Shown here one piece after another: positions 19,833 to 54,232 of a stretch of 64,000 nt of DNA. Position numbers and translations under genes: made by a program. This stretch comes from Candidatus Babeliales bacterium. GTDB taxonomy: Bacteria > Babelota > Babeliae > Babelales > JANWKD01. How positions within the stretch are numbered: the first letter of the stretch is position 1; the number at the start of each line of letters is the position of its first letter. Under the pieces are notes generated by a model. The model searched no databases. It had not been told where the DNA came from and saw only the letters and a program-made list of their open reading frames with translations. Where the stretch lies: positions 1,056,001 through 1,120,000 of the forward strand of contig OY969622.1 in the NCBI GenBank assembly GCA_963701665.1. Reading direction: 5' to 3'.

Positions 19833-20030
19833 GTCATTGCGAGCCCTTGTTAAAGGGCGTGGCAACCCAGCTTATAGAATTAACTCCTTAAAGGAATTAA
19901 TTAAAGTTCTGGATCCCCACGTTCCGCCTTCGCTTATCCATGTCTTCCGACTTGGCAAGCTACGTCGAACAGGCGCTTCGTTGCGGATCCTGCGAAGCCT
20001 TGGCGAAGAAGGACCGCTCCTCGGGAAGAC
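19833..20030 (+). repeat. Palindromic intergenic repeat, copy 4 (core plus inserted modules in right arm)
   Basis: GTCATTGCGAG...GGATCCCCACG-[TCCGCCTTCG...GAACAGG][ATCCTGCGAAGCCTTGGCGAAGAAGG]-CTCGGGAAGAC. Confidence 0.93.
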
Positions 20031-20100
20031 ACGGGGTTTGGTGTAAGCCTATTAAGGTCGAGGTCATATATATGCCAATTTTCATTTTTGAGAAAAAATT

Positions 20101-20874
20101 ATGTATCCAAAAATAATGCATCTCTTTGGTCCTATCTATATTAATAGCTATGGCACTATGATTGCGTGTGCGATCGGTATTTTTACATGGTTTGTCACAC
20201 GAGATCCCCGTAGAGCAAAAATTATATCAACAGAGCAACTCCATTGGGTGCTAATTATTGGCATAATCAGCGCTATACTTGGTGGCCGCATACTCTATTT
20301 TTTAATTGATGGTACGTATAGCATCCAAGATTTTTTTTCCTTTTGGCATGGCGGTTTTGCGGTGCTCGGGTCATTGATCGGCGTCCTCTGTGTTGCGCCA
20401 TGGTATTTAAAAAGAAATGGTATCGCTTTACTACCTTTTTTAGATTTAATCGCAATCTATGCTCCATTATTACAAAGTATTTCACGCATAGGATGTTTCC
20501 TTGCCGGTTGTTGTTATGGAAAACCAACGAGCGTTGCATGGGCGGTTACCTATTATCATGAAGCATGTACCGCGCCATTACATATCCCATTACATCCAAC
20601 GCAGCTGTATAGTGCACTACTATTGTTCGGTATTTTTTGTCTTCTAAAATTTCTTCTTGCACCAATCTGCAAAAAGAACGGGCAACTGGTGAGCTTATAT
20701 ATTCTTTTCATGGCAACTGAACGATATATCACCGATCTCTTTCGAGGTGATCAATCATTCGGTATCGGTTTCTTTGGTTCCCCTTATCAACTACTTGCAT
20801 GTTTTCTTATGTTCAGTGCCGCAGTCTACTTTTATTTCATCACGTTCCGGCCTTCTTCAAGCGTACGCTCATGA
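20101..20874 (+). CDS. lgt: Prolipoprotein diacylglyceryl transferase
   Basis: SYG, GGRILY, WHGG, RIGCFLAGCCYG, HPTQLY, FRGD motifs. Confidence 0.92.
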   Translation: MYPKIMHLFGPIYINSYGTMIACAIGIFTWFVTRDPRRAKIISTEQLHWVLIIGIISAILGGRILYFLIDGTYSIQDFFSFWHGGFAVLGSLIGVLCVAPWYLKRNGIALLPFLDLIAIYAPLLQSISRIGCFLAGCCYGKPTSVAWAVTYYHEACTAPLHIPLHPTQLYSALLLFGIFCLLKFLLAPICKKNGQLVSLYILFMATERYITDLFRGDQSFGIGFFGSPYQLLACFLMFSAAVYFYFITFRPSSSVRS

Positions 20875-22664
20875 GCCTCTTTAAATTTGTAAAAAGCAAT
20901 GTTGCCATCCTAGAAGTTGTCAGTGCTTATACAACGCTCAAACAAGCGGGCCATTATTGGAAAGGCTGCTGCCCACTGCACACAGAAAAAACGGCCTCGT
21001 TCACGGTAAGCCCGAATCGTAATATTTTTTACTGCTTTGGATGTCACATTGGTGGTGATGCTATCGCATTTATTGAAAAAGTGGAAAATTGCTCCGCGCT
21101 GCAAGCTTCAGAATATCTTATTGATCGGTTTTCTTTAACCGTACCTGAAGAATTGCGCTCAAAAGATCGCCAGCACAAAACGAGTGCACACACCGATGAA
21201 AAAAAACAGTACTGGGATTTGTGTGCGCACACGGCCGCGTGGTGCCACAATCAGCTCATGCGCTCGCCTCATATTCTGGAATATCTCGCTCACCGAGGGA
21301 TAGAAAAAAATATGATCGCTCATTTCATGCTCGGTTTCTTTCCGAGTGGCCAATATGCACTCAAGTCACTCGTTGATTATGCCAAAACGCAGAATTATTT
21401 ACTTGATGATCTTCTTACTGCTAACATTGTTGGCGTAACTAAAGGCACTATTTTTTCTTCATTAGAGGATCGTATCGTTTTTCCCATAAAAGATCATCTT
21501 AGTCGCCATTGTGGATTTGGGGGGAGAATTTTCAAACCGCAGGATACCCGCCCCAAATATTATAATTCCAAGGAAAATCCCTATTTTTCAAAAGGGTCCT
21601 TGCTCTTTGGCCTTGAACTTGCCAAAAAACATATTCAGCAAAGTAACAGCGCTTTCTTAGTAGAAGGCTATATCGATTGTATCGCCATGGTGCAACACGG
21701 CTTTCCCAACACGGTGGCAACCCTTGGTACTGCTTGTAATTTAGAACATTTGAAAGTCCTTTCACGCTATTGCCAAGTCCTCTATGTTCTGTTTGATGGT
21801 GATATAGCAGGCCAAAAAGCCATGCTCCGCCTTACTGATTTTGCCTGGCAGGTCAATATTGATCTTAAAATCGTTCGATTGCCTATAGGGGAAGATCCTG
21901 CCTCACTGTTGGCAAAAAAAGGCGACCTACACTCCCTTGTGAGCCAAGCTCAGGACATCTTTATGTTCTATATTCAGCACTTAGGACAGGACTTTTATCA
22001 AAAAACCTTACAAGACAAGATGCAGAGCACTAAAAATTTACTCTCGCTAGTGGCCCATCTAGAACCGCTCAAACAGGATTTTTTATTACAGACTGCATCG
22101 AAAGCGTTTGCTATACCCTGTACCACGCTCAAAACTGAGCTAGCACGCTTAAGCCACAAAGTTGAACCGGCGCCAACCCAGGATACGCCGGCGCAAACAG
22201 CTCCAAAAGCTGAGTCAATTTCCCTGAAAAGAATATCTGATTTGGAAAAAAAATTATTTTCTGTTATAGTAAATAACATAATGGAGTTACCGGCACCTAT
22301 AGATCACACCATTATTGAGTCTTTTAGTTCACCTTTACAGGAAATTCTTACGATCTTGCTTGAGAAAAAAGAAGAAGCTGCACCCTTTGATTTTGCTGAG
22401 TTTTTTGAACGTTTAACACCAGCCCAGGGGGAGCTTACCAATAAAATTTTATTCACGTATCAAACCTATGATGATACGCAAAGTTTTATGCAGCTTTTTG
22501 AGCATTTTGCCAAAAGCCAATGGAAAGCGAGGGTGAATATGCTTAAACTAAACCTCGCAAAAGCACATAAAGAAGGTAACGAGCAGAAAGTAAAAAAATT
22601 ATTAGAAGATTTCCAACATCTCAAACGTACGTTAACTAGGGGTACACATGAGCAAAAAAATTAA
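20871..22664 (+). CDS. dnaG: DNA primase
   Basis: Zn finger [11 protein letters not shown]...CFGC, FGGR, PKYYNS, VEGYID, FDGDIAG motifs. Confidence 0.96.
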
Positions 22665-24827
22665 ATCAAAAAAAGTAAAAGTAGCATCGAAAAAAGCTGT
22701 AGCAAGAAAAACAGTAGCAAAAAAAGCAGCGTCGAAAAAAGTAGCATCAAAAAAAACAAGCGCAGCCCGTTCAAAAGCGAGTATAAAGAGCCGCCCAAAA
22801 AAAGTCAGCCCAAAGAGCAGTGCAAAGAGTAGCGCAACAGCTAGTCCAAAAACCACGCTAAAAGGCAAAGCAAAAGATATTGATACTCGCAAAAAATTAG
22901 CACCGAAAAAAAAGATCGTAGCGCCGAAACCTACCGCGCAACAAGCGCATGAAGAGGAAGAAACACTCAACCCTGTCGTAGGGGAAGCGCTCGGTGTAAA
23001 ATCTGAATTTAAAAAGGGTCTTATAGAACCACTCATTGCCAAAGGTAAAAAGAGTGGATTTTTGACCTATGAAGAAGTCATGGAATTTAGTCATAAATTC
23101 CAATTGACTGATGTAGAAACAAATAATCTGATGCGCGTTTTTGATAAAGAGCATATTGAACTTCTCATGCAAGAAGAGCTTGAAGCAAACTCGCCTGATA
23201 TTGATGGTTTTGAAAAAGATGATGAGCCACTTAAAGGTAAAAATCTTAAAGAAAAACTTGAAAATTCTTTAGATATTGAAGCTGATGAAGAACTTGTCGA
23301 AGAAGAAGACGAAGCTGACAGCGATGAAGATAGAACGGCAGCAATTCGAGAAGCTGCAAGTTCTGCACAAATTGCCGACGGTGTTAAATGTTATTTGCGC
23401 GACATTGGTAAAATTCCTCTTTTAAATAAAAAAACAGAATCAATTATTGCCGAACAGATCGCATCAGGTAAACGCGAGTCAATTGAAGCTATTTCACAAT
23501 TTCCATTTATCCATAAAGAATTTGTGTCAATTGGCGAACGTATCCAAAAAGGCACCCTTCCTTTAAAGGATGTCATTCAGTTCTCTGAATTTGATCAGGA
23601 AAATTTGCCAAAAGTGCAAGAAGAAAAAGATGCTCTTCTAGCCACCATCCAAAAAATCAAAGACTTAATTGGCAATGAAGAAAAAATTTATCGCCACTAC
23701 CGCGGCAATCTCGATACTGATGCAAAAAAGAAAGAGATGCTTGATAAGGTCAAAGAGAACAAAAAGCTCATTGCCCAAACAATTCAATCAATCAAAGTTG
23801 CCAACAAATTGATCAAAAAGCTTGGCAATAGAATTGAAAAAGCTGTTTTAAAGATTCAAGAAAAACTGACCATCATCAAAGAGAACGAAGAAAAACTCGC
23901 CTATTTTAAACAAGCAAAAAACGTTGATCCGCTTGAAAAAGAAGAGTGCGAAAAAAATATTCGTGGCGCCTACAAAGCTATTAAAAAAATTGAAGGCGAA
24001 ATGGGCCTTCCTCAATCGCTCATCTTCAAATATTATGCACAACTTAGACATGGCCAAGATAAAGATAAACGTGCCAAAGATGATCTTGCCAAAGCAAACT
24101 TGCGTCTTGTGGTTAATATTGCCAAAAAATATATTAACCGCGGGTTACATTTCCTTGATTTAATTCAAGAAGGTAACTATTGGTCTTAATGAAAGCAGTT
24201 GAAAAGTTTGAATTTGAACGAGGGTATAAATTTTCGACCTATGCAACCTGGTGGATTCGTCAAGCCATAACTCGTGCAATTGCCGATCAATCACGTACAA
24301 TTCGCGTGCCAGTGCACATGGTTGAAACGCTTAATAAAATTAACAAAATTAAGCGTACGTTTATCCAAGAACATGGTCGCGAGCCAAGTCATGCTGAATT
24401 TGCAAAAGAGCTTAATATTGATGAGAAAAAGATCAAAAATATTATCAAAATCTCTAAAGAACCAATTTCTCTTGAAACACCCGTTGGTGATAGCGAAGAT
24501 GCATTCATTAAAGATTTCATTGAAAATGAAGATGAATTTTCACCCGCTGACACGGTAAGCAGCAATGATTTGAAAGAACGCGTGCGTGAAGTTCTTAAAA
24601 CATTGACGCCGCGTGAAGAAAAAGTGTTAAAAATGAGATTTGGGATTGATGTTGCTTCTGAGCATACCCTTGAAGAAGTTGGTAAGGATTTTTCTGTTAC
24701 TCGTGAACGTATTCGTCAAATTGAAGTGAAAGCATTACGTAAATTACGACATCCTTCCCGCAGTAAAAAATTAGAATCGTTTTTTGATAAAGAATTTGAT
24801 ACGATTGCTAATGACTCGATCGAATAA
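22648..24827 (+). CDS. rpoD: RNA polymerase primary sigma factor, split by a frameshift at ~24178-24188
   Basis: Region 1.2 ([11 protein letters not shown]) and 2.1-2.2 ([20 protein letters not shown]) in one frame; [20 protein letters not shown] and region 4 ([15 protein letters not shown]) in another. Confidence 0.95.
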
Positions 24828-24862
24828 TAGAGACTCGTTTAAAAAAGGATATTTAAGGAACA

Positions 24863-26170
24863 ATGGAACCAGATCAAGTTAGTTTGTTGTATGGAGAATT
24901 TGCGCTCTTTTTTCTCTCACTTCTTGGTTGTGCTCTTTTTTCATTTATTGAAACAAGTATTACCGCGCTCCGTCTTTTTAAATTAAAAGAAATTGCCACC
25001 GGAACGACACGATACGCAGCACTGCTTGATACCCTCGAAAATAATCCTCATCAAGTACTGGTCACCATTCTGATTGCTAACTGCCTAGCCAATGTAACGG
25101 CAGCTGCGTTGATTACCAACATCATGGAACGAGTGTTTGCCTCGCTGAAGTTATCGACAAGCTTAGGGTTCTCATTAGGCATCGGTATTGGTACGTTTCT
25201 TATTTTAGTAATCGGTGAAGTGGTGCCTAAAAATGTTGCAAAAGTACATGGTGAAAAGCTATTCAAATCAGTATTATGGGTCACTAATATTACCTATTTT
25301 GTCATGTATCCTTTTGTCAGTCTGCTCATCCACATTTCAAATTTCTTTGTCAGATTCATTGGCGGTTCAAGTGAGTCAACTGAAGCCGTTACTTCTGAGC
25401 GTGAGATACGATTCTTAATCGATTACATTAACAAAAAAGGTCTCATAGAAACAGAAAAGACTGAGATGCTCCAAAGTATTTTTAACTTTGGCAGCAAGGA
25501 AGTGCGGGAAATTATGGTACCCGCCGTTGATATCATTATGATTAATGCAACGGCAAGCATTCCTGATGCACTCGCCATGTTTTCAAAATATCAGTTTTCT
25601 CGTTTGCCTGTGTATGAAGAAAACCAAGAAAATATTATTGGTATGTTATATCAAAAGGATATTTTTGCCCTTCTTTCACATGATCATCATAAATCACTGC
25701 ATGATCTTGTGCGACCGATTCTTTTTGTGCCCGAAAGCATGAAAATCAATCAGTTGCTACGCAAATTCAGGCAACAACGCATGCATATGGCCATTGTTAT
25801 TAATGAATATGGTAGCATCACGGGCCTTGTAAGTCTTGAAGATGTTCTTGAAGAAATTGTTGGTGAAATTAGCGATGAATATGAAGAAGTAACTGAAAAA
25901 GTTATTCCTTTACAAGAAGGCGGTTGGCTTGTCGATGCTTCCGTTGATTTAAAAAGTTTATCAGAACTCCTTGATATTACTTTTAGCACCAACGCAGTAA
26001 CCTTGGGCGGATTTTTAACGGAACAGTTGCAACATTTACCCAACAAAGGCGAGCGCATTTTATATAAGCATTATTATTTTCAAGTGCATAAGGCGAGCCA
26101 CAAACGTATTTTACAAGTTTTGATCTTTCACGATTCTCTTCCTGAACCCACGTTAATTTCACAAGAATAA
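24863..26170 (+). CDS. Hemolysin/CNNM-family protein (DUF21-CBS-CorC)
   Basis: FSFIETS, GEVVPK, VREIMVP, FSRLPVY, INEYGSITGLVSLEDVLEEIVGEI, TLGG. Confidence 0.92.
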   Translation: MEPDQVSLLYGEFALFFLSLLGCALFSFIETSITALRLFKLKEIATGTTRYAALLDTLENNPHQVLVTILIANCLANVTAAALITNIMERVFASLKLSTSLGFSLGIGIGTFLILVIGEVVPKNVAKVHGEKLFKSVLWVTNITYFVMYPFVSLLIHISNFFVRFIGGSSESTEAVTSEREIRFLIDYINKKGLIETEKTEMLQSIFNFGSKEVREIMVPAVDIIMINATASIPDALAMFSKYQFSRLPVYEENQENIIGMLYQKDIFALLSHDHHKSLHDLVRPILFVPESMKINQLLRKFRQQRMHMAIVINEYGSITGLVSLEDVLEEIVGEISDEYEEVTEKVIPLQEGGWLVDASVDLKSLSELLDITFSTNAVTLGGFLTEQLQHLPNKGERILYKHYYFQVHKASHKRILQVLIFHDSLPEPTLISQE

Positions 26171-26278
26171 TCACAGCATCTTCCTTGACTTAGCAAATAT
26201 CAAGTTTCTAAGATTAATTTAAATAACGCCAAACGCAATCTAGCTATTCCGCAGGAAATGCGTATTAAAAACAAAGTT

Positions 26279-26376
26279 GTCATTGCGAGCGCATGCGTGG
26301 CAATCCAATTATAAAATTAGTTCCTTTAAGGAATTAATTAAAGTTTGGATCCCCACGGCTAACGCCTCGGGATGAC
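26279..26376 (+). repeat. Palindromic intergenic repeat, copy 5 (core; outer inverted repeats span ~26224-26412)
   Basis: GTCATTGCGAG-cgcatg-CGTGGCAATCCA...TGGATCCCCACG-gctaacgc-CTCGGGATGAC. Confidence 0.95.
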
Positions 26377-26442
26377 GTCCTTGTTTTATTACGTTTCATC
26401 GCATTAGCGTTAAGTTGAAATAATTTATTAGGGAGAGAGTGT

Positions 26443-26808
26443 ATGAAAATTGTTTATATATATATTTTATTGCCATTACTTTTTGGCACAGATGTTATCC
26501 ATGCCGCCAAGAAACCAAAGCAAAACGAACAAAAACCATCAACACAACAAGAAGAGGAATTGAGTGATGAAGCACGCGACGCGATGCTCATCACTTCAGG
26601 CGTGGGCATTTTAACGGCAGTCGCAAGCATTTTAATTGATCGCTACAATATTTCCCATGTTAAATCACAACTCTTTCTTATGCTCGCCGGTATTCAACAA
26701 TTTGTTTCCTATATGGTGCGCTCGCCATTGACGGAAGAACAAAAAGAAAGAATTGTTGAGGAATTAATTGCCTATTTAGAAGAACAGTGGGAACTGAACA
26801 AAATTTAA
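26443..26808 (+). CDS. Exported hypothetical protein
   Basis: GGGAG RBS; signal peptide IHA|A. Confidence 0.7.
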   Translation: MKIVYIYILLPLLFGTDVIHAAKKPKQNEQKPSTQQEEELSDEARDAMLITSGVGILTAVASILIDRYNISHVKSQLFLMLAGIQQFVSYMVRSPLTEEQKERIVEELIAYLEEQWELNKI

Positions 26809-26829
26809 TGTTGCCTAAAAAATTTTTCT

Positions 26830-27153
26830 TTATTTATTTTTTCGTTGCTCATATTCTTTTTCTAGGAAGTCAAAATATTCATCAGATATAGGCTCATAGT
26901 GCCAAGGACGTTCTTTCCAACATTTGATATCACCAGCTTTACGTTCTTCGATATCAATTTTACATTTATGAGCCACCATAATTTTAAAGCCATCTACCGG
27001 AAACAAATCCGCACTATACCATATCTCTTTTTTATTTTCCCCTCTGCGAACCGTGCTTATATTTGCTACGTCTAATTTTTGTGGAGCATCCATTGTTTGA
27101 GTATCGGTTATACACACAATGGTAAAAGCAATCATATAATAACGTAACTTCAA
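26830..27153 (-). CDS. Small secreted hypothetical protein
   Basis: AAAGG RBS, TTG start; signal peptide TQT|MD. Confidence 0.65.
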   Translation of the reverse strand: MKLRYYMIAFTIVCITDTQTMDAPQKLDVANISTVRRGENKKEIWYSADLFPVDGFKIMVAHKCKIDIEERKAGDIKCWKERPWHYEPISDEYFDFLEKEYEQRKNK

Positions 27154-27372
27154 AATCTGCCTTTCTTACTAAGATATCCGATTTCATAATGATATTGTTA
27201 TTCTACAACATCAAATTTTCGCAAACTACTTTGCCATAAAAGCACATTTTTGCAATTAAATATCAAAACTCCCCGTGGCGAAATAAAAATAAAAACAATT
27301 ATTCATATTTATTGCAATTAGAAAAGTTAATCTTGTATCATAAAGCTAGATTTACTTTTCTAAGGAAATAGT

Positions 27373-29466
27373 GTGTATAATAAAAAACTGTTGTTATTTT
27401 CAGTGTTTTCTTTTTCTGCTATAACTATGGCCCAAGAATGTCCCTTGAGCGAAAAAACATTATTATTTATTGATACGGGGTTTAATAATCCTTATTGTTA
27501 TGATTCGTTATTTACCCTCGCTCGTTCTGCGGGTTTTAACCCACTCTTTAAGCCATTTTATAACGTTAGCAAACAGGATCTTGTAGCATCCGACACGATT
27601 TTTTTTAACATTGATGGGTTATTCCTAAAAAATTATTTAGAAGCGCGATTACAAAAAAAAGAAGTCACGCATCCTGTTTTAGTGCGTATTCTCGCCCTTA
27701 TTGCAACCATTGCTCAAAGTTCCCATAAAACTATTACTTTATTGCTGCCGGAACTTAACATTAAACAAGAGGCATTTAACATCCTATTGCTTGAAGATTT
27801 AACACGGCTCTTTAACATTATCCCTCAAGAACAAGAAGCACGGATAAAACCTGCCATGAGCATTTTTTTTCATGAACTGTTACAACCAGATCATATAAAA
27901 AGTACCTCGTATAACACGGCACTATTACACACAAGAGAATCAAAAGAAATACAAAGCACGAACTTAGAGATAAAAGATCCAAATGATGATCAGATTATAG
28001 TAAAAACAGTGCCGCTATTTCAGTGCGATGGATTAAAAACATATCCTCTCGCCCTCTACACCAAAAATAATGCTATGGATAATCAGTTTTTTATAAGCAA
28101 AATAAGCTTATTAACATTCGCTGATATTAAAGAAAGTTTTGTTTATAATCCTATGGATTATCCACTAAGAACACTATTGCTTACCCAGTTACAGCAATTT
28201 TTATGTGTTGTATACCAATCGCATCTACACAAAAAATTACTCGATCCATGCCAACAAAATCTTGTATTGCCCTCGTTATTTAATCAACAGCGTGAAATGC
28301 AGCTCAAGGGAACGTTTGCAAACGAGCGTAATAAAAACACCGATCAAAAAAAATACGCGTGGGTTAATAAAGAAGAAATTTGGTGTGGCTGGGGCGGCCT
28401 TGAACAATATGAAAAAAAGGAACCTCAAGCCGTCGAGCATTTGGGTCAATCGGGCATTAATTTGTTATGGCTTGAATTAAATCCTGAATGGTATCTGGCT
28501 GAAAATGCGATGAGAAAAGATCAAAAAAATAAATTCCTCTCATCAATTGAAGCGTTCACTAAGGCATATGCTGCCTACAAGGAGAAAGAAGGCCTATCAT
28601 TGCCTCACTTTTTTGTAGGTACTGATATTACCAGTAATTTTCGAGTAACCCCCGTTAAACACCCCGTTCGTGATGTCTATGGAACGGTATATTCAAAAAT
28701 TCCCTGCCCCTTTGATGTTGAAAATTTTTGGCAACCCGAACTTTTTGATGTTTTAACCTCGTTCAAAAAAGAATGGCGAACTATTAATCATGGCGTTACT
28801 CTTGATGGCATCTTTCTAGATCTAGAAATGTATCATGCTCAGGATCAAAGCGGTCAATATACAACTGAGATGGATTTTTCAGATTATGCATGGAATTTAT
28901 ACGTTCAAGCAAAACAGAATCCCTCTTTAATGAAACTTACTTTTGAAAACCGTATCCGGTATTTACTTGATCAGCAGCAATTTGATGATTATTTTGCTTT
29001 CTTACATCATGAAGCTTTCAAAATAGGCAGGCTCATCAAAAATTATTGTCACCAAGAATTCCCACACGCCCTGTTAGGGGCATATAACATCCATCTGCCT
29101 CATGCATGGTTTTACCTAGGCTTGTTAGCAGGATTAAGCTCGCCACAAGATCCTCTCATTCTTGCTACCTTCAATAATGAATTCTATCGCCACTATAGCT
29201 GGTTACATCAGCAAAACATTTTTCTGTATCATATGCCCGTTTTATTGTTATCAAAGTTTAAAAAAATTGAGGATTTTGGGCTCATCAATGAGTTTGAAAA
29301 AACGCATGACGGTGCTTGGTTTAACCGAATATCGCGGCTTGAAGAATCACGCGACCCACAAACATGGCAATGGGATTACGGTGTTGAAACATCGCCTTTA
29401 TCAACGGAGATTGTAGTCAACCACATGAAACATGCTATTACCGAGTGTCAAAAAAATCTTAAATAA
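27373..29466 (+). CDS. Secreted protein, C-terminal half possibly a glycoside-hydrolase-like TIM barrel
   Basis: 697-aa ORF with signal peptide; DGIFLDLEMY resembles the TIM-barrel GH beta-4 motif. Confidence 0.6.
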   Translation: MYNKKLLLFSVFSFSAITMAQECPLSEKTLLFIDTGFNNPYCYDSLFTLARSAGFNPLFKPFYNVSKQDLVASDTIFFNIDGLFLKNYLEARLQKKEVTHPVLVRILALIATIAQSSHKTITLLLPELNIKQEAFNILLLEDLTRLFNIIPQEQEARIKPAMSIFFHELLQPDHIKSTSYNTALLHTRESKEIQSTNLEIKDPNDDQIIVKTVPLFQCDGLKTYPLALYTKNNAMDNQFFISKISLLTFADIKESFVYNPMDYPLRTLLLTQLQQFLCVVYQSHLHKKLLDPCQQNLVLPSLFNQQREMQLKGTFANERNKNTDQKKYAWVNKEEIWCGWGGLEQYEKKEPQAVEHLGQSGINLLWLELNPEWYLAENAMRKDQKNKFLSSIEAFTKAYAAYKEKEGLSLPHFFVGTDITSNFRVTPVKHPVRDVYGTVYSKIPCPFDVENFWQPELFDVLTSFKKEWRTINHGVTLDGIFLDLEMYHAQDQSGQYTTEMDFSDYAWNLYVQAKQNPSLMKLTFENRIRYLLDQQQFDDYFAFLHHEAFKIGRLIKNYCHQEFPHALLGAYNIHLPHAWFYLGLLAGLSSPQDPLILATFNNEFYRHYSWLHQQNIFLYHMPVLLLSKFKKIEDFGLINEFEKTHDGAWFNRISRLEESRDPQTWQWDYGVETSPLSTEIVVNHMKHAITECQKNLK

Positions 29467-29540
29467 CCCTCACATCATTCCTCCATCAATGATATGCTAT
29501 GGTAAATTCATAGCAAAATATAATGAGGTGAGGCTTTGCC

Positions 29541-29864
29541 ATGAACAAAAAAAATCTTACGCTAATCCTGGTTCTTTCTTTCCCTACTTTCAGTTTTTGC
29601 ATGTACCATCGCTTTCTAATTATTCATAACGATCAAAAAGAGAGTATAAAAATTGAATTTTTTCGACCAGATGTAGGTTTTGGTGGTTCACATACCTGCA
29701 TAAAAGATGAAATTATACTACAGCCACAAGAATGGACGTTAGCCTCCATCGGAATAGCAAAACGCAAGCCATATTCATCAATGAGGTGCATTACTTCTAC
29801 TAAAAAATTTATTCTAAGAGTTCCTGAAGACGTCTCTCAAGTTAATATAAAAAACACACCCTAA
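29541..29864 (+). CDS. Small secreted hypothetical protein
   Basis: GAGG RBS; signal peptide SFC|MY; IIHND..I.I motif. Confidence 0.6.
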   Translation: MNKKNLTLILVLSFPTFSFCMYHRFLIIHNDQKESIKIEFFRPDVGFGGSHTCIKDEIILQPQEWTLASIGIAKRKPYSSMRCITSTKKFILRVPEDVSQVNIKNTP

Positions 29865-29912
29865 TGCAGATACTTACGACAAAAATGCTTTATTAGGGTA
29901 TACTTATCTATT

Positions 29913-32492: not shown

Positions 32493-32643
32493 GTCATTGC
32501 GAGCGAATGCGTGGCAATCCAATTATAAAATTAGTTCCTTTAAGGATTTAATTAAAGTTTGGATTCTACTTCGTTAAAACTTCGTAGAACAGGTCCCCCC
32601 ACAGCCCTTCGGAGCTCATAGAGCGAAGTAGGGTCGGGATGAC
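32493..32643 (+). repeat. Palindromic intergenic repeat, copy 6 (core plus two modules in right arm)
   Basis: GTCATTGCGAG...GGATT-[CTACTTCGTTAAAACTTCGTAGAACAGG]..[CCCTTCGGAGCTCATAGAGCGAAGTAGG]-GTCGGGATGAC. Confidence 0.93.
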
Positions 32644-34187: not shown

Positions 34188-34286
34188 GTCATTGCGAGCG
34201 AATGCGTGGCAATCCAGATAATAAAATTAATTCCTTAAGGATTGTATTAAAGTTCTGGATCCCCACGGCTAACGCCTCGGGATGAC
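34188..34286 (+). repeat. Palindromic intergenic repeat, copy 7 (core)
   Basis: GTCATTGCGAG-cgaatg-CGTGGCAATCCAG...CTGGATCCCCACG-gctaacgc-CTCGGGATGAC. Confidence 0.95.
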
Positions 34287-42861: not shown

Positions 42862-42886
42862 GAGAGTCCTTTCTCCTGTAAATGTT

Positions 42887-45006: not shown

Positions 45007-45046
45007 GAAATGTTTATAGTTTTTTAACAGCTCTTGTCGCACTAAT

Positions 45047-46015: not shown

Positions 46016-46046
46016 TATACTGGAATAATAACCAAAAGGAGCCCCT

Positions 46047-47876
46047 TTGCAAAAAGTTGATGCTAAAGACACGATTCACATTGCTCAACCAAAAAAAAAG
46101 ATTAAACCGACTAAAGTTATTTTAAAACTGCTTCCTTATTTGTGGATCACTGATTGGCGACTCCGCGCACGCGTATGCTTATCAATTTTTTTTATCATAA
46201 TAAGCATGGCTCTCAATCTGAGCATCCCTTTAGTATTAAAAAAATTAATTTCTTTATTTGAACTTTCAACACGCCCAGTTTTCATCACCCAACTGTTTTT
46301 GATCGCCTATGGCGTTTTGTGGACACTCAGCCAAATCACTATTCAAATGCGTGAGATAGTTATGTTTCGCGTCATGGAACGCGGCATTCGATTATTAAGC
46401 TTAAAATTATTTCAACATTTTCAAGCACTTTCATTGCGCTTTCATGTTGCACGCAAAACGGGTGCCATCGTAAGTGCCATCGAACGAGCGCAAGATAGTT
46501 TCCCCGATATTTTTTGGGGTATTTTTCTTTCAATAATTCCGACCATAGCAGAAGTACTTATTGCCATGGCTATTTTGTGGTATATGTATGGCTTTCAATA
46601 TGGGCTCACACTTTTTTCTATTTTAGTAAGTTATATAATTTTTAGTTCCATAAGTATGGAATGGTCAACAAAAGCGCAACGAATATCTAATGAAAAAAAA
46701 TTGAATGCAGGCGCGCGTATCGTTGATAGTTTGCTCAATTTCGAAACAGTAAAATATTTTAGTAATCAAAAATTTGAAATTGAACAAACCAACAAAATTT
46801 TAAAAGAGCGTGAAGACGCAACAACCAATTATCATATCACGACGGAATTAGTGCACCTGGGTCAAGGCATCGTTTTAGGCATAGGGCTCATCACATTGAC
46901 TTGGATGGTAGGTAACAACGTTATTAAAGGTACGATGAATGTGAGTGATTTCATTTTAATTAATGGGTACCTCATTCAGTTTGTTACGCCACTCAGTTGG
47001 TTTGGTTATGTTTTGCGTAAACTGCGCAAAGGCCTCACCGATATGGAAGCGGTGTTTAATCTCTTGCAGTTAAAACCTGAAATTGTCGATGCACCGAACG
47101 CCATCTCATTGCATATCACACAAGCAACAATCAAATTCGATCATGTTTATTTTTGGTATGATGCTCGCCGTCCCATTTTAAAAGATGTCAATTTTTCAGT
47201 CCCGGTAGGGCAAACTGTTGCAATCGTCGGGCCAACCGGTTCAGGAAAATCAACTATCGCGCGTTTGCTTTTTAGATTTTATGATGTGAACGAGGGCAGC
47301 ATCAAAATTAATGATCATGATATACGCTCGATTACTCAAGAATCTTTGCAAAAAATCATGGGGATCGTTCCCCAAGATACCGTACTTTTTAATAACTCGC
47401 TGTATTACAATGTTGCTTATGGCGATATACATGCCAGCCCAGAAGATGTTGAGCATGCCATCAAACTTGCTCATTTAGATGGTTTTATTAAACGACTTCC
47501 CGAGGGTCTTAACACGCCGGTTGGCGAACGAGGGTTGAAATTATCAGGCGGCGAAAAACAACGAGTGGCGATTGCACGTGTGCTTTTGCATAAACCCGTT
47601 ATCTACATCTTTGACGAGGCCACCTCAGCACTCGACACGCACACAGAACAAGAAATCCAAAAAAACTTGGAAGAAATCTCTGCCGGATCAACGACCCTCA
47701 TTATTGCCCACCGCCTTTCGACGGTCACCCATGCTGATACCATCATTGTTCTAGAGCACGGCTCTATTGTTGAACAAGGCTCCCATAGAGAATTACTCAA
47801 AAAAGGCGGATTATATGCCCGATTATGGGCAAAACAAGCACAGGAATGCGAAGAGTTCGTTGAGTCAATTTCTTAG
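46047..47876 (+). CDS. ATM1/ABCB7-like ABC exporter (fused TMD-NBD)
   Basis: LSLRFHVARKTG, DSLLNFETVKYF, GPTGSGKST, GERGLKLSGGEKQR, DEATSALD. Confidence 0.93.
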   Translation: MQKVDAKDTIHIAQPKKKIKPTKVILKLLPYLWITDWRLRARVCLSIFFIIISMALNLSIPLVLKKLISLFELSTRPVFITQLFLIAYGVLWTLSQITIQMREIVMFRVMERGIRLLSLKLFQHFQALSLRFHVARKTGAIVSAIERAQDSFPDIFWGIFLSIIPTIAEVLIAMAILWYMYGFQYGLTLFSILVSYIIFSSISMEWSTKAQRISNEKKLNAGARIVDSLLNFETVKYFSNQKFEIEQTNKILKEREDATTNYHITTELVHLGQGIVLGIGLITLTWMVGNNVIKGTMNVSDFILINGYLIQFVTPLSWFGYVLRKLRKGLTDMEAVFNLLQLKPEIVDAPNAISLHITQATIKFDHVYFWYDARRPILKDVNFSVPVGQTVAIVGPTGSGKSTIARLLFRFYDVNEGSIKINDHDIRSITQESLQKIMGIVPQDTVLFNNSLYYNVAYGDIHASPEDVEHAIKLAHLDGFIKRLPEGLNTPVGERGLKLSGGEKQRVAIARVLLHKPVIYIFDEATSALDTHTEQEIQKNLEEISAGSTTLIIAHRLSTVTHADTIIVLEHGSIVEQGSHRELLKKGGLYARLWAKQAQECEEFVESIS

Positions 47877-47889
47877 TAGCCCCCTCGAT

Positions 47890-48053
47890 GTCATCATGAG
47901 GAGCCGTCCTACTTCGCCAAGGCTTCGCAGGATCCGCAAGAAGCGGCCTGTCCGACATAGTTTTAACGAAGGCGGAACGTAGTGATCCAGTCTTTATAAT
48001 GAAAAATCCTAATTAGACCTGGATTCCTACGGCACAAGGTGCCTCAGAATGAC
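47890..48053 (-). repeat. Palindromic intergenic repeat, copy 8 (divergent core plus two modules)
   Basis: GTCATCATGAG-[CCTACTTCGCCAAGGCTTCGCAGGAT][CCTGTCCGACATAGTTTTAACGAAGGCGGA]-CGTAGTGATCCAG...CTGGATTCCTACG..CTCAGAATGAC. Confidence 0.9.
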
Positions 48054-48237
48054 ACTTCTCCTAAACCATGCTTTTTCTTCAATTCCTTTTCTTGATAACG
48101 CTTAGTAAAAAGTGCAAATTATTCCAAGAAATCAGCTCTTAAATTTGCCAATTAAGCAATTTCATGCTACGCTGCTAGCTGTATTATTATATGTTTAACC
48201 CCTTAAACCCCTCTCACTCTTTAGGAGTCTTTTTTAC

Positions 48238-50088
48238 ATGTCAAAAGAAGTAATCAAAAGTAGTCAGTTTGCACACGTCAAACAGCAATCAATCGATGAA
48301 GCACTAAACCTAAATCAAGAACAACACAAAGAACTTGCCTCGTTATATGAGGGTATTGTAGACCTCTTTAAACCGGGCAAAATTGTTATTGGTAGAGTTA
48401 TTAAGGCTGATTCTGATGGCGTTTTAGTGGATATTGGTTATAAATCTCATGGCCAAATCCCTCATTATGAATTTTCAGAGCATGAATTTAAAAAATTAGC
48501 ACCCAACAGTGAAATTGAAGTTATCCTTGATGAGCTTGAAAACCTTGAAGGAAACTTAAGCCTTTCTTATGAAAAAGCAAAGGCACTTCGTGCTTGGGAC
48601 TCAATTACGAAACTCTATGAAGAAAATAAGCCGGTGGAAGGTATAGTCACTCATAAAGTACGTGGCGGACTTAGCGTCGATATCGGCGTTCCAGCATTTT
48701 TACCTGGCTCACAAGTAGACGTACAACGCGTTAATGACTTTGATCAATATGTTAATCAAACCATTACAGCGTATATTATTAAAATTAACCAAAAACGCGG
48801 CAACGTTATCATTTCTCGCCGTAAATTCTTAAATGATCAACGCCAAGAATCTCGTAAGAAAGTACTCGATCAACTTAAAGTTGACCAAGTTATTCAAGGT
48901 GTTGTTAAAAATATTACCAATTACGGAGCCTTCATTGATATCGGCGGTGTTGATGGTCTTCTTCATATTACTGATATGACCTGGGGACGCATTGCACATC
49001 CGAGCGAACTTCTTAAAATTGGTGATAAAATTTCTGTCAAAGTTCTTTCATTCGATCCTAATAATGAAAAGATCTCGCTTGGCATGAAACAATTAACCGA
49101 TAATCCATGGGCACACATTAGTGAAGAGTTCACCGTTGGTTCAAAAATCAAAGGCAAAATCTCAAGCATCACCGATTATGGATTATTCATTGAAATTCAA
49201 AAAGGCGTTGAAGGACTTGTTCATATTTCTGAAATATCATGGACCGATAGAATTCATGATTTGCATAAGCATTTCAAAGTAGGCGATGTCATCGAAGTGC
49301 TCATTGTCTCTATGGATAAAGAAAACAGAAGAATGTCACTCAGCATCAAGCAATTGCAGAAGAATCCATGGCAGGCTATTGGTGAACAGTTCAAAATTGG
49401 TCAAAAGATCAAAGGCAATATTAGCAACATCACTGATTTTGGGATCTTTGTTCAACTTATACCTGGCATCGACGGTTTAGTACATATTTCCGACCTTTCT
49501 TGGACTGAACATGTTACTCATCCGAGTGATATTTATAAGAAAGGTGAAGAAGTTGAAGCTGTTGTGCTTGCTATTGATGAAGCGAATAAGCGTATATCAC
49601 TTGGCATTAAACAACTGCAACCAAATCCTTGGGAAATGATTGAACAAGAATATCCTGTTGGCAAAATCATCGAAGGTGAAGTTTCAAAAATTACCAATTT
49701 TGGTGCATTCATCAAGCTTCCTATCGGCATTGAAGGACTTGTCCATATTTCTGAACTTTCAAAAAATAACGTAGAAAACGTTAATGAAATTCTTAAAGTC
49801 GGACAAAAATATCCTTTCCGTGTTATTAAGGTCAGCAGAGAAGAGCACAAATTAGGATTAAGCTTGAAACTAACTGATGACGAAGAAGTAAAAGAGAAGA
49901 AACCGAAAAGAGAAGCTTCTCAATCTTCTGAACGCTCGCCTAAGAGAGAAAAACGCTCGTCCTATGATCACTCAATGAGTTCTTCTTCGCAACAAACGGG
50001 TGCAAAACCTAAATCACTCCTGCAAATTGAGCTTGAAAAATTGGCTGCTCGAAATGGCTCTGATGATAGATCAGGAAATGAAAGGTAG
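48238..50088 (+). CDS. rpsA: 30S ribosomal protein S1
   Basis: Six S1 repeats (AFLPGSQ, YGAFIDIGGVDGLLH, EGLVHISE). Confidence 0.97.
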   Translation: MSKEVIKSSQFAHVKQQSIDEALNLNQEQHKELASLYEGIVDLFKPGKIVIGRVIKADSDGVLVDIGYKSHGQIPHYEFSEHEFKKLAPNSEIEVILDELENLEGNLSLSYEKAKALRAWDSITKLYEENKPVEGIVTHKVRGGLSVDIGVPAFLPGSQVDVQRVNDFDQYVNQTITAYIIKINQKRGNVIISRRKFLNDQRQESRKKVLDQLKVDQVIQGVVKNITNYGAFIDIGGVDGLLHITDMTWGRIAHPSELLKIGDKISVKVLSFDPNNEKISLGMKQLTDNPWAHISEEFTVGSKIKGKISSITDYGLFIEIQKGVEGLVHISEISWTDRIHDLHKHFKVGDVIEVLIVSMDKENRRMSLSIKQLQKNPWQAIGEQFKIGQKIKGNISNITDFGIFVQLIPGIDGLVHISDLSWTEHVTHPSDIYKKGEEVEAVVLAIDEANKRISLGIKQLQPNPWEMIEQEYPVGKIIEGEVSKITNFGAFIKLPIGIEGLVHISELSKNNVENVNEILKVGQKYPFRVIKVSREEHKLGLSLKLTDDEEVKEKKPKREASQSSERSPKREKRSSYDHSMSSSSQQTGAKPKSLLQIELEKLAARNGSDDRSGNER

Positions 50089-50097
50089 TATCCATCA

Positions 50098-50508
50098 ATG
50101 TTAGAAAAAACCTTTGCCATTATTAAACCGCATGCAGTTGCTGACAAACTTTCAGGCGCAGTCATAAGTCTGATTGAAGGGAATGGTTTTGAGATTCTTG
50201 GTATGCGTAAAATGCGTCTTACCAAGGAACAAGCAGAACATTTTTATGCTGTGCATAACAGTAAACCGTTTTTTGCTGATTTGGTAAAAAATATCACCGG
50301 CGGGCCTGTCATTGTACTTGTCTTACAAAAAGAACAAGGCATTAAGGCTTGGCGTGATTTGATGGGAGCGACTGATCCATCCAAAGCAGCAACAGGCACC
50401 ATCCGTAAACTATACGGAACCTCATTGGATTTCAATGTAGTGCATGGTTCTGATGCGCCAGAAACGGCAAAAGCTGAAATAAAACAGTTCTTTCCAGAAC
50501 TTGCATAA
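50098..50508 (+). CDS. ndk: Nucleoside diphosphate kinase
   Basis: TFAIIKP, WRDLMGAT, GTIR, NVVHGSD. Confidence 0.96.
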   Translation: MLEKTFAIIKPHAVADKLSGAVISLIEGNGFEILGMRKMRLTKEQAEHFYAVHNSKPFFADLVKNITGGPVIVLVLQKEQGIKAWRDLMGATDPSKAATGTIRKLYGTSLDFNVVHGSDAPETAKAEIKQFFPELA

Positions 50509-50536
50509 ATAACTTTATTTTAAATAAAGAAACTTT

Positions 50537-50570
50537 AAGGAGCAGAAAATTTTTTCTGCTCCTTTTTTTT
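50537..50570 (+). terminator. Intrinsic terminator of rpsA-ndk
   Basis: AAGGAGCAGAAA/TTTCTGCTCCTT stem plus T run. Confidence 0.85.
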
Positions 50571-50657
50571 ATACTAATCTTTAATATATTTTCATTTATT
50601 CCACTTTTATATTATAGTGATTATCACTATTCAATACGTAATATTAAAGGAAAAATC

Positions 50658-50999
50658 ATGAAATATTCTCACATAATTTTTACAGGAATTATTTTTTATT
50701 GTTCCAGTGTTCATCCTATGGAAAAACAAAACGGGTTCACAGAAAGCGAATTGAAACAACAACAGGACCGTCTTTTAGCAACGCTCAGAGAAGCGCACAA
50801 ACAACGTGGACAATATAGCCAGACACCCAATGTAGAAAAACAAGATAGCTTGGACAAAGAAGCTTTTCTAGCACGACTTAAAAACGCTCATACTGATTGG
50901 ATAACACAAGAAGCATTGGGAGAAAAGCACAACAAGAAACCTGTTGATAGCGATGAAGTCAGAGAAATACAAGGATTAGAAAAGAAGCTAAATAAGTAA
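50658..50999 (+). CDS. Small secreted hypothetical protein
   Basis: AAGGA RBS; signal peptide VHP|ME. Confidence 0.7.
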   Translation: MKYSHIIFTGIIFYCSSVHPMEKQNGFTESELKQQQDRLLATLREAHKQRGQYSQTPNVEKQDSLDKEAFLARLKNAHTDWITQEALGEKHNKKPVDSDEVREIQGLEKKLNK

Positions 51000-51064
51000 T
51001 CTTTAAGCTTTTTTGATATCCGTATTATTTCAACGGTAGGGCCATTCCTGGAAACAATTCAAGC

Positions 51065-52375
51065 ATGACTAGTTATCACATGACTAAAGCATTCGCACTC
51101 TGTTTATTTCTATTCCATTCATTGCAAGGCATGGATGGCGAAGGAAAGAAATGTTTTAATGCCTATTTTTTCATTAATACTACAGAAGTAGTCGATGATG
51201 TTCCTCAAAATGATGATCATAATTTTTCTGCAACGGAGGCATTAGCAGAACAGCTTTTCAACAAAAAAACTGATTTTATCTTTTTCCCCTATTCGATGCT
51301 CACCATCATTCATCAACATTTTCAGCAAGCAAAAAAGGTCTTATCAACATACGGAATAACAGATCCACTTGAACAAACCATCATTGAAAATAGGGGGAAG
51401 TATTACCCATCAAAACTCTATTCATTTGAGCCAACAGATCCGCTCTCTATGCAGTCTACTCAGAACGAGTTCGGTATGCGTGAAGTCGTTTATAAAAAAG
51501 CAGCATTAGTGATGCATCCTCAAGCAGTTGAGGATAAATTTTCTAGTACTCTTTCAAAGGATACTTACCGCCATTTTCTGTTAAAAACAATCAACAATAA
51601 AGAATTTTCACTTGATGTTGAAAGGTATTACAAGTTATTTTTAGGGCTTAAGCTCAACTTGTGGAGACTTTTTGATACAGCAATCGGATTATATTGTTTG
51701 ACTTCCTTAGATCAACATAAAGATTGTCCAATATTGTTGAAACATTTTATTGAAATCCCCGATTTAGAACAGGCGGAAACAAAAAAGGATTCAAATGAGT
51801 GGACAGCAAAATTAGATTCATTATTTAACTGTAGCAGTAAAGCCTATTGGTCAATGTATATTCATGGACATGGGCAAGAAGATTTTTCAGAGGAAGCAAC
51901 AATTGCTGGCCTTCCTGGTAAAAAATTAGCAAATGTATTAACGTTTTTTAATGATAATCTTGCAGTACACCATGTTACCTTTTTTTCGTGTTACACTAAT
52001 ACTGAACGCTTACATAATGTTTTAAAAAAATACACGCCATTATCATCATTAAACTATACACTACTGGCACCAAGTTCAAAGAAAGACACTGCCCGAAAAA
52101 TGATACCAGCATTACAACATTATTATCCACGATGGTTTAAGGTTCGTAATCACATAAAATTAATCGATAATTCAACCGTTCTCAAGATTGTTCCTAGTGC
52201 GCTCAAAGAAAATTATGACGATCAAACACTATTAACATTCATCTGTCGATACTCTCGAGATCACGCACATTCATTTCATCCTTTTTCAATTTTGCCGGCT
52301 CATACACAAGAACATTTAACTTTTGATAATAAAAAAGTTTTAGAAAATTACTTAAAAGAGCATCAATCGCAATAA
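51065..52375 (+). CDS. Secreted protein with a possible clan-CD cysteine protease dyad
   Basis: Signal peptide LQG|MD; MYIHGHG ... VTFFSCY. Confidence 0.6.
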   Translation: MTSYHMTKAFALCLFLFHSLQGMDGEGKKCFNAYFFINTTEVVDDVPQNDDHNFSATEALAEQLFNKKTDFIFFPYSMLTIIHQHFQQAKKVLSTYGITDPLEQTIIENRGKYYPSKLYSFEPTDPLSMQSTQNEFGMREVVYKKAALVMHPQAVEDKFSSTLSKDTYRHFLLKTINNKEFSLDVERYYKLFLGLKLNLWRLFDTAIGLYCLTSLDQHKDCPILLKHFIEIPDLEQAETKKDSNEWTAKLDSLFNCSSKAYWSMYIHGHGQEDFSEEATIAGLPGKKLANVLTFFNDNLAVHHVTFFSCYTNTERLHNVLKKYTPLSSLNYTLLAPSSKKDTARKMIPALQHYYPRWFKVRNHIKLIDNSTVLKIVPSALKENYDDQTLLTFICRYSRDHAHSFHPFSILPAHTQEHLTFDNKKVLENYLKEHQSQ

Positions 52376-52446
52376 AGTTCTTTGTAACAAGTATCCTTTT
52401 TTGGCTATACTTACATACAAAAAAACAATTTTTTGTATGAGAAAGT

Positions 52447-53223
52447 ATGATACGTAAAGCCATAGTATTAGTATTCCTCTTTTTTTCATCATATTCTTTA
52501 GCAAAGACCATTTTTATCATTGTTCCCGGCACCTGGGCGCATGATCATGGCTGGCATTCAGAAGATGGTGATTTTTTTACTGCATTAAAAAATACTGTTG
52601 ATCAAAATACAACGTCTGTCATAACCTATTATTGGTCAGGCAAAAATACACACACAGCACGAGAATATGCTGCACAAGGATTAGTAAATTTAATCTGTAG
52701 TTTTAACGAATATGATACTATATATCTGGTGACGCATAGCCACGGTTCAAATGTTGCCATTTTAGCTTCACAATTATTAGCACATCATCCTAAGAAAAGA
52801 AAAATTGAAACTATATATGCATTCGCAACGCCTGTGGATCCAGAAAGTTATTTTCCCGACATGAGCATAATACATTATTTTTTTAACTTTTTTTCTTATT
52901 CAGATTTTGTTCAAACAGTGCTGTGCACCTTCCAACGTGTTTATCCAAGGCACAAACGCATTGCCAATATTTCCGTAACCATAAATCACCTACAACCAAA
53001 TCATGATACCATTCATGATGCATTGATCGCATCATGGCTATTAAAAATTCCTGCATGTTTTGATACCTTTGATTTTCAACAACCCGGATCGATTGCTTTT
53101 TTTTCAGGCAAACGACCGGAATATTATATAGAACTTGATCGAGAAGAACGCCTTGAACATGATTTTTATTTGACGCAACAGTATTGCTTAGTGCTACAAG
53201 GAAGAAACAATGCTAAAAACTGA
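52447..53223 (+). CDS. Secreted alpha/beta hydrolase
   Basis: IVPGTW, YYWSG, VTHSHGSN, FATP; similar to 35272..36198. Confidence 0.8.
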   Translation: MIRKAIVLVFLFFSSYSLAKTIFIIVPGTWAHDHGWHSEDGDFFTALKNTVDQNTTSVITYYWSGKNTHTAREYAAQGLVNLICSFNEYDTIYLVTHSHGSNVAILASQLLAHHPKKRKIETIYAFATPVDPESYFPDMSIIHYFFNFFSYSDFVQTVLCTFQRVYPRHKRIANISVTINHLQPNHDTIHDALIASWLLKIPACFDTFDFQQPGSIAFFSGKRPEYYIELDREERLEHDFYLTQQYCLVLQGRNNAKN

Positions 53224-54019
53224 TCACAAAATCGTAGTGAACGCATCATCACGGATTGGTTTTTTTGATTCCGGCATTGGCGGGCTCACCATTCTTAAAC
53301 AATTTTTACCATGTAATGCTGCAAAATATATATACGTTGCTGACACTGCGCATATGCCTTATGGCAGCAGATCGAGACAAGAAATTCAAGCATACAGTGA
53401 AGCAATCGTACGTTTTCTTTTGAATAACGCGTGCGATCAGATCATCATCGCGTGCCATACTGCAACTGCACTCGCTTTTGAACATGTACAGACTGTTTTT
53501 AAAAACGCGCGCATCATAGGCGTTGTCGAGGGTGTTGTGCACGAAGCACTGGCTACTACAAAAACAAAAAGAATCGGCATTATTGCAACCGCAGCCACCA
53601 TAGCGAGTGGCTATCATGAACAACAGTTAAAAAATTATGATCCTGGAGTTCAAGTATTTCCCGTGCCCTGCCCCCTTTTGGCATCAGCCATTGAATTTGG
53701 CACTCATCGAGGCGAAGCGTTGCATACTCTTATAAAAGAATATCTCCAAGCTTTTGAACACACCAATATCGACACGCTTATCTTAGGATCAACGCACTAT
53801 GATATCATCAAAGATACGATACGAAGACTCGTTAGCCCTGCAATTACGATAATTAGCGCGAGCGATGTCATGCAGAAGACATTGAACAATGTTGCACCAA
53901 GTAATGAAATTGTATCGTCATTATCATGGTACGTTACGGGAAATAAGCATCTATTTCTAGCGAGTGCAAAAAAAATTCTTTCGTTGCCCGAACAAAGTCT
54001 CTCATCATTAAATCTGTAA
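53210..54019 (+). CDS. murI: Glutamate racemase (non-canonical catalytic motifs)
   Basis: FFDSGIGGL, DTAHMPYG, IACHTA, LILGSTHY. Confidence 0.88.
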   Translation: MLKTDHKIVVNASSRIGFFDSGIGGLTILKQFLPCNAAKYIYVADTAHMPYGSRSRQEIQAYSEAIVRFLLNNACDQIIIACHTATALAFEHVQTVFKNARIIGVVEGVVHEALATTKTKRIGIIATAATIASGYHEQQLKNYDPGVQVFPVPCPLLASAIEFGTHRGEALHTLIKEYLQAFEHTNIDTLILGSTHYDIIKDTIRRLVSPAITIISASDVMQKTLNNVAPSNEIVSSLSWYVTGNKHLFLASAKKILSLPEQSLSSLNL

Positions 54020-54074
54020 ATAGCCCAAATTCGACATGACTATACCTCAGCAAATGCGTATTGGAACCAAAATT

Positions 54075-54232
54075 GTCATTGCGATCCTACTTCGCTCTAC
54101 GAGCTTCGAAGGAGTTGGCAACCTGTTCTACGAAGTTTTAACGAAGTAGAAACCAGATAATAAAATTAATTCATTAAAAAAGGAATTTATTAAAGTTCTG
54201 GGTCACCACGTCACTACGTTCCTCGTGATGAC
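54075..54232 (+). repeat. Palindromic intergenic repeat, copy 9 (core plus two modules in left arm; outer inverted repeats span ~54021-54291)
   Basis: GTCATTGCGAT-[CCTACTTCGCTCTACGAGCTTCGAAGGA]..[CCTGTTCTACGAAGTTTTAACGAAGTAG]...GGGTCACCACG..CTCGTGATGAC. Confidence 0.93.

Follow-up and report, generated by a model that had tools for sequence, protein, structure and literature searches.

The spread of repeats of 20 to 50 bases is an open question in bacterial genomes, and for those of the CGTC type no mobiliser had been named as of 2013, as far as the accessible passages of PMC3733652 go. The question is raised again by a stretch of 64,000 nucleotides (nt) of Candidatus Babeliales bacterium (contig OY969622.1, forward-strand positions 1,056,001 to 1,120,000), referred to here as the window. 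It corresponds to G000:C1:1056001-1120000, where G000 is the genome with the window, a single contig of 1.34 Mb; other G numbers designate the genomes of relatives and L numbers the GIY-YIG loci. The window contains nine copies of an inverted repeat of about 100 nt, the host repeat, and four of the nine carry short modules, as the initial annotation had stated. In this study, we report that these modules are copies of a unit which is very probably a discrete mobile hairpin, its mobility being well supported, and that a Slx1-like nuclease of one clade of small GIY-YIG proteins (clade 2) is, judging by the company it keeps in the genomes, its likely mobiliser.

The quoted 28-mer forms an exact inverted pair in host copies 6 and 9 (window positions 32566-32593 on the plus strand and 54122-54149 on the minus strand), occurs nowhere else in the window and had no match in 100 shuffles. 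The second modules of these copies also match, as an inverted 38-nt pair with 87% identity, and copies 4 and 8 have a different pair in common, an inverted block of 75 nt with 83% identity; all these relations had been claimed and are borne out. In copy 6 (32493..32643, plus), whose backbone minus the modules is identical to a module-free copy, unit A (30 nt, 32564..32593, minus) stands at the foot of the right-arm stem, at the site GGGA^TCC, and unit B (32605..32633, plus) takes the place of the right-arm apical hairpin. Copy 9 (54075..54232, plus) carries a configuration I cassette in its left arm, with unit A (30 nt, 54122..54151, plus) at the stem foot and unit B (54085..54113, minus) in place of the left-arm apical hairpin. 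The foot site of unit A is identical in both, which agrees with the proposal of one cassette at mirrored positions of opposite arms. A configuration III cassette is found in the right arm of copy 4 (19833..20030, plus), an inverted dimer of CGTC/NTS type: its unit A (19923..19973, minus) is a long-loop form of 51 nt, with a CCTG tail and the hairpin, and its unit B (19988..20013, plus) is a tail-less variant of the unit hairpin, with the tail side toward unit A. The same configuration is present in copy 8 (47890..48053, plus), with differing arm alleles and spacer, as unit B at 47907..47932 (minus) and unit A (30 nt, 47947..47976, plus) within the upper hairpin of the arm. The further loop insert noticed in copy 4 does exist, but it is not private to that copy: it is a long inner-hairpin allele which recurs in tRNA-attached copies and in inserts of a third repeat family.

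The unit is a hairpin with a tail of 4 nt, which in most copies reads CCTG; the hairpin has a stem of 6 bp, an internal loop of GNA/GNA and, within it, an inner hairpin. The modules had been described as CTTCG sequences of about 28 nt; the unit and its sequence are real, but its length is 30 nt, or 51 nt in copy 4, and the strand that folds is the opposite one, the GNA strand. It is to this strand that the stem mismatches point, because on it G-T pairs (at least 22) exceed A-C pairs (about 2). A structural descriptor of the unit gave 86 matches in G000 versus 0-1 in each of five shuffles. When the loop letters were freed, 193 of the 463 distinct matches were GNA/GNA and 192 more were their mirror strand, with none in three shuffles; all four bases occur in the middle position of GNA. 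Directly 5' of the stem the dinucleotide TG is enriched (T in 63%, G in 81%), and conservation falls 3' of the stem.

Excising the hairpin together with exactly 4 nt regenerates an existing 14-mer, and does so better than other boundaries. In the scan of 33 units of G000 the best cells lay on one diagonal, with 5-11 per cell and at most 4 off it, and in other genomes the best cell was the same as in G000 (12/82). No target-site duplication accompanies the unit, since the removal of tail and hairpin restores the empty allele and leaves no repeat behind. The cleanest case in G000 is the third repeat family, in which a single site is filled in three alleles and empty in four. Because of the boundary scan and of these filled and empty alleles, the unit is taken to comprise 30 nt and to enter without duplication; the junctions, whose mapping the initial annotation had proposed, are clean. 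The third family is structured and 200-250 nt long (G000:C1 47943-48140, 415733-415940, 1196969-1197173 and 1261931-1262150, with further copies at 1309650-1309880, 79500-79672 and 534592-534669). It often adjoins or sits inside elements of the Ssn type, to which the host repeat belongs as discussed below; no enzyme was identified for the family, and Rfam returned nothing at threshold on it.

The initial annotation regarded the hairpins of the host repeat as the target of the unit. The unit does sit in them, but it is not specific to this host, given that many hairpin repeats harbour it, as does the unit itself. Its clean inserts in relatives involve five or more kinds of hairpin, among them the arms of a third GIY-YIG clade, and at L226 two inverted insertions lie 5 nt apart; in addition, it nests in other copies of the unit. 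In G000, 20 of the 37 tRNA and tmRNA genes have the unit hairpin directly after CCA, read on the CTTCG strand. Beyond these genomes, a search with a 30-nt pattern yielded at least 121 metagenome stretches, 80 of which were analysed together with 26 viral-contig stretches, giving 106 in total. In 42 of them the reading frame stays open over 60 codons or more to either side of the unit, and among 17 of these 42, picked by peptide motif, 14 showed Pfam domains, GltX, MiaA, HisH and dCTP deaminase among them; at the position of the unit HisH has a gap of 7 residues and MiaA no net gap. The in-frame peptides that had been suggested thus exist in other genomes, but none is convincing in G000, where only 2 of the 86 descriptor matches fall in open reading frames (ORFs) of at least 120 amino acids, one being weak and chance-like and the other lying in an ORF that overlaps a tRNA gene.

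The host repeat is itself part of a nuclease-hairpin system. A motif scan of G000 paired 87 elements, whose arms follow the layout GTC, 5-bp stem, bulge, variable apical hairpin and CCA tail, with covarying stems. Small GIY-YIG genes number eight in this genome, in addition to a UvrC-like one. Four of the eight are each enclosed by two host arms, and the other four adjoin tRNA-type elements with the unit, two of them behind called tRNAs. The host-arm nuclease (about 97 amino acids) is 54% identical over 89 amino acids to a GIY-YIG protein of 94 amino acids from Neisseria (E 1e-36), below the threshold used for SsnA homology (E<1e-10). The Neisseria protein, which has eight NTS matches in its flanks and is taken as SsnA from its length and these flanks, clusters with clade 1 of the small GIY-YIG proteins (SH-aLRT 99), and tagged hairpins of the Ssn type stand on both sides of the gene at 15 of 16 clade-1 loci. 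Because its nuclease is 54% identical to this NTS-flanked protein, the host is, by homology, an Ssn/NTS-type system of the CGTC REP superfamily. The published degenerate SRM pattern found a single match in G000, outside the host arms (0-2 in shuffles), and the arms represent a bulged variant. According to the accessible passages of Chenal et al. (2025, PMC11893778), SsnA cuts single-stranded DNA (ssDNA) only, 5' of the tag, and extensions of the loop are tolerated, which fits the tolerance of inserts at the apical hairpin of the host arms.

A co-occurring nuclease family had been named as a check on the unit, and the small GIY-YIG proteins of clade 2 were found beside it. From G000 and 40 relatives we collected 97 small GIY-YIG loci, leaving out UvrC-like, weak or partial matches and five unlisted ones. 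They fall into three groups by profile score, and a tree of 96 of the 97 agrees. Upstream modules are absent from clade 1 (0/16). Clade 2 has no Ssn-type arms (0/58), and its genes are preceded by a GNA-strand module in 25 of 58 loci by the strict descriptor (0.5 in shuffles) and by a tRNA-like 3' end in 37 of 58. Among 80 clade-2 loci from many phyla, a module on either strand lies upstream in 68 (2.7 expected), on the GNA strand in 60, and a tRNA or tmRNA is within 450 nt in 45. Usually tRNA-CCA is followed by a reversed unit, then by an AT-rich spacer and an inverted repeat of 10 nt that covaries, and finally by a second unit and the gene; Babeliales records are present among the relatives of the G000 clade-2 nuclease. 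The clade-2 protein has 80 amino acids and matches Slx1 and UPF0213 structures. All 58 sequences retain the catalytic Y, G, R and E, and 57 retain the H. It is 34% identical to the Neisseria protein over 65 amino acids (E 4e-6), which leaves it outside the SsnA threshold, and it forms a separate group in the tree. Of the 27 genomes with clade 2, 21 contained at least three modules, as against 2 of the 14 others. Around the GIY-YIG loci, Rfam gave only tRNA at threshold.

Some clade-2 elements of G000 follow the CCA of a structured stretch not called by ARAGORN (G000:C1 350764, 659362, 853501 and 224379). The same CCA-ended layout is seen at L006, L040, L081, L095 and L114; in all these cases the stretch would be a tRNA fragment or another RNA gene ending in CCA. 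Clade 3, which we take to be UPF0213-like, has its own inverted arms in relatives (L030-L033, L035, L037, L059-L065, L104, L105) and is a further nuclease-hairpin pair outside Ssn.

The arrangement of the units bears on how they may enter. Adjacent units stand tail-to-tail in 35 of 36 pairs in G000 and in 33 of 40 in other genomes, and in each of the 22 arms that have unit A at the foot of the stem, unit B lies upstream. In the host arms, the distance from the insertion point of the second unit to the stem of the first is 8 nt (nine copies), 9 nt (five), 11 nt (two), 14 nt (three) or 16 nt (three), and in two copies of the third repeat family it is 16 nt. There are consequently 14 gaps of 8-9 nt from the insertion point to the stem of B, to be compared with the SsnA cut, 8 nt 5' of the stem (NTS75 giving a 20-nt product), in the accessible passages of PMC11893778. 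This likeness is suggestive only, as the 8-9 nt spacing derives from few independent events and other gaps range from 4 to 16 nt.

We propose that the GNA strand folds as ssDNA and that the clade-2 nuclease would bind it in the way that SsnA binds NTS. The nuclease would cut beside the unit, and host repair would then produce copies at mostly purine steps, in the loops and bulges of other hairpins. In the Ssn-type arms, unit B would have come first, replacing the apical hairpin, a position that SsnA tolerates, and unit A next, 8-16 nt 5' of B on the strand of B, which would give tail-to-tail pairs. About six ancestral cassettes may afterwards have been multiplied and swapped among arms and backbones via recombination of the host repeat.

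Several points weigh against the unit as a mobile hairpin served by clade 2. The covariation of its stem is partly built into the descriptor, and the folding energies of six arms (four long, two short) are no better than those of shuffles (z from +0.5 to -1.2). Unit B, tail-less and replacing host sequence, is no clean insertion. The pairing noticed in the window, true of its cassettes, is not obligatory, since 101 of the 106 metagenome and viral-contig matches have no partner unit. With respect to the nuclease, no clade-2 gene was seen in G013 (16 modules, 85% complete) or in G018 (four modules), the sole one of G030 (18 modules) is broken, and G019 has two such genes and no module. Additionally, modules lie upstream of 7 of 23 clade-3 genes, as inserts in clade-3 arms. 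The co-occurrence among genomes is partly trivial, given that the flank of the gene itself is counted and that related genomes are not independent. GIY-YIG nucleases are not known to join strands, and the proposed mechanism leaves the joining step unexplained.

Some of these points would be expected if the unit were mobile and any ssDNA hairpin were acted upon by several small GIY-YIG clades (1, 2 and 3) or by host repair, with clade 2 as a mere usual neighbour and template switching or ectopic repair as the means of spread. The presence of the unit inside other units, and in arms that belong to elements of clades 1 and 3, would suit such a process, as would the module-rich G013 and G030 without an intact clade 2, and the targets share only a purine bias (GA precedes the unit in 37 of the 106 metagenome and viral-contig stretches). 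We nevertheless regard this explanation as unlikely: across phyla the unit belongs to the clade-2 flank as a fixed and covarying component (68/80), it is absent upstream of clade-1 genes (16/16), and identical boundaries in unrelated targets are hard to obtain by template switching.

The unit enters without duplicating its target and has a tail of four nucleotides at the foot of its stem, two features that resemble the chemistry of REP and RAYT, and Y1 genes are present in G000. An HUH (Y1) transposase, either a RAYT or an IS200/IS605 TnpA, might thus excise and insert the unit as ssDNA, with a 4-nt tail and no duplication as the outcome. The Y1 copies of G000 (five IS200-like, equal-scoring, plus a broken one), on the other hand, have ends of their own and do not include a module in the element, and 10 of the 21 genomes without a Y1 match hold at least three modules, including G035 with 31; for the 20 genomes with Y1 the figure is 13. 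With no linked Y1 gene and with module-rich genomes that have no Y1 match, a Y1 or RAYT mobiliser is not supported, and we consider it very improbable. The IS200-like element itself contains only tnpA (G000:C1 79824, 216174, 1253004-1254495 and 53104), three of its five equal-scoring copies being in tandem, and two copies lie directly against the spacer side of a host-repeat arm.

The strict placement at the CCA ends of tRNA and tmRNA genes could also suggest that the unit acts as RNA, as a tRNA 3' trailer or a regulatory hairpin that spreads via an RNA intermediate, and 3x3 G-A loops are stable in RNA too. At the tRNA ends, however, the folding strand (GNA) of the unit nearest the CCA lies antisense to the transcript, host copies are found in either orientation, Rfam gave no match except tRNA, and the related SsnA shows no RNA binding in the accessible passages of PMC11893778. 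There is very little probability left for this alternative.

The idea of one ancestral long host variant, or of pure arm-to-arm conversion with no independent unit, can appeal to about six cassette configurations in G000, clearly amplified with the arms, and to configuration III-like cassettes in a related genus, but it is refuted as the full explanation, given that one clade is rejected by the approximately unbiased (AU) test and that the unit lies behind 20 of the 37 tRNA/tmRNA genes, in the filled alleles of a third repeat and in 106 unrelated metagenome and viral-contig loci. The initial annotation had counted confinement of the modules to the cores, and a single clade of long copies, against its proposal; the unit was found outside the cores and the single clade was rejected. 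It had also offered a small mobile unit and arm-to-arm conversion as alternatives, and both hold together, with clean boundaries, copies outside the cores and cassettes scattered over backbones.

Conversion remains as a secondary process. The host tree was built from 78 of the 87 elements (three long and six unparsed were dropped), with hairpins and modules cut out. A single clade of module-bearing hosts, 24 of the 78 backbones, was rejected (p-AU 2.8e-6), and therefore the cassettes also move between arms and backbones; one clade of the ten configuration I copies was rejected as well (p-AU 2e-4). The cassette label changed 20 times on the tree versus 20.3 in shuffles, and for 17 of the 24 filled backbones an empty copy was at least as near as any filled one. 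It must be considered that host backbones are short and recombine, so that the tree test cannot count insertion events. Configuration III was found in eight arms and unit B alone in seven; the arm finder behind the latter count missed some long arms, and the counts of long arms come from separate listings. Few insertions followed by the shuffling of host arms would be the simplest reading of the cassettes. G001 and G003 have different alleles of the unit at the same stem-foot site, which suggests either repeated insertion or old divergence. In G001, of the same genus, a motif scan showed no host element at the intergenic sites orthologous to those of copies 6 and 9 of the window, which hence gave no filled/empty pair for the unit. 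As to polymorphism among strains, five read runs shared at most 0.09 of words, and four gave short contigs only.

The other five host copies of the window are module-free: copy 1 (1373..1478, plus), copy 2 (8617..8716, minus), copy 3 (9867..9975, minus), copy 5 (26279..26376, plus), which served as the empty reference allele, and copy 7 (34188..34286, plus). The window also contains an rpoD-like sigma-70 gene (22648-24827), present as two overlapping ORFs (22648-24189 and 24180-24827) split within region 2, apparently by a frameshift near 24175-24185 that is either real or an assembly error; the N-terminus of its protein is a Lys/Ala-rich repeat. Elsewhere in the genome, 40 of the 42 occurrences of one 14-mer fall into two clusters (G000:C1 825043-841961 and 1294158-1297234), often at multiples of 108 nt; these clusters are probably long repeat-protein genes.

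The 30-nt ssDNA hairpin and the 80-amino-acid Slx1-like GIY-YIG protein may, as we tentatively put it, constitute an undescribed mobile system across phyla, which would home to the CCA ends of tRNAs, enter the hairpins of rival nuclease-repeat systems (Ssn included) without duplication and add 10-residue peptides to housekeeping proteins. Literature searches, with subscription journals outside their scope and the supplements of Chenal et al. covered in part, gave no account of the unit, of its peptides or of the clade linked to tRNAs. With exact boundaries, filled and empty alleles and a candidate enzyme, the spread of such short repeats becomes testable with oligonucleotides and one small protein. 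The unit would also be a source of 10-residue insertions in annotated proteins, and it suggests that, beside Ssn, there is a second family of nucleases which cut single strands at specific sites.

Among known systems, the small dispersed repeats (SDR) of cyanobacteria, which Elhai et al. reportedly described in 2008, are said to be very small mobile hairpin elements; compared by description only, the present case differs in that a candidate nuclease clade and a home site at tRNA-CCA are identified. Rickettsia palindromic elements (RPE), of which RPE-1 is much longer than the 10-codon insertion of the unit, offer another comparison. According to the accessible passages of PMC3733652 they are likewise found in frame in housekeeping proteins, as the unit is in genomes other than G000; the unit differs in occurring in diverse metagenomes, and it has no convincing copy in a gene of G000. 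The CGTC REP superfamily (Di Nocera et al., 2013, PMC3733652) shares with the host arms the GTC tag, stem, CCA tail and inverted dimers; the accessible passages name no dedicated enzyme and contain no mention of GIY-YIG, and the unit itself differs by its CNTG tag and GNA/GNA internal loop. From MITEs the unit is distinguished by the lack of target-site duplication. REP/REPIN sequences with RAYT, as presented in the accessible part of PMC3116915, are likewise tagged hairpins of ssDNA type beside a small nuclease gene. They often form inverted pairs, an arrangement that the unit shows in G000 but mostly not in the metagenome and viral-contig stretches; the unit has no RAYT link, inserts singly as 30 nt and takes other hairpins as targets. 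Ssn with NTS/SRM (PMC11893778, accessible passages) is matched by the host in GTC-tagged arms flanking a GIY-YIG gene of about 97 amino acids, and by the unit in that a hairpin with a tag lies 5' of a GIY-YIG gene with a single domain. The clade-2 protein is distant from the SsnA-type protein and nearer to Slx1/UPF0213. The accessible main text of Chenal et al. (2025, PMC11893778) mentions neither tRNA nor cd10449, and its passages describe no nested insertions, whereas the unit nests. By analogy, the unit likely works like an Ssn-type nuclease-hairpin pair without being a member of the Ssn, REP/RAYT or MITE families. If the cross-phylum system tentatively put forward above is real, the small GIY-YIG clades would, like RAYT, be mobilisers of tiny repeats in general.

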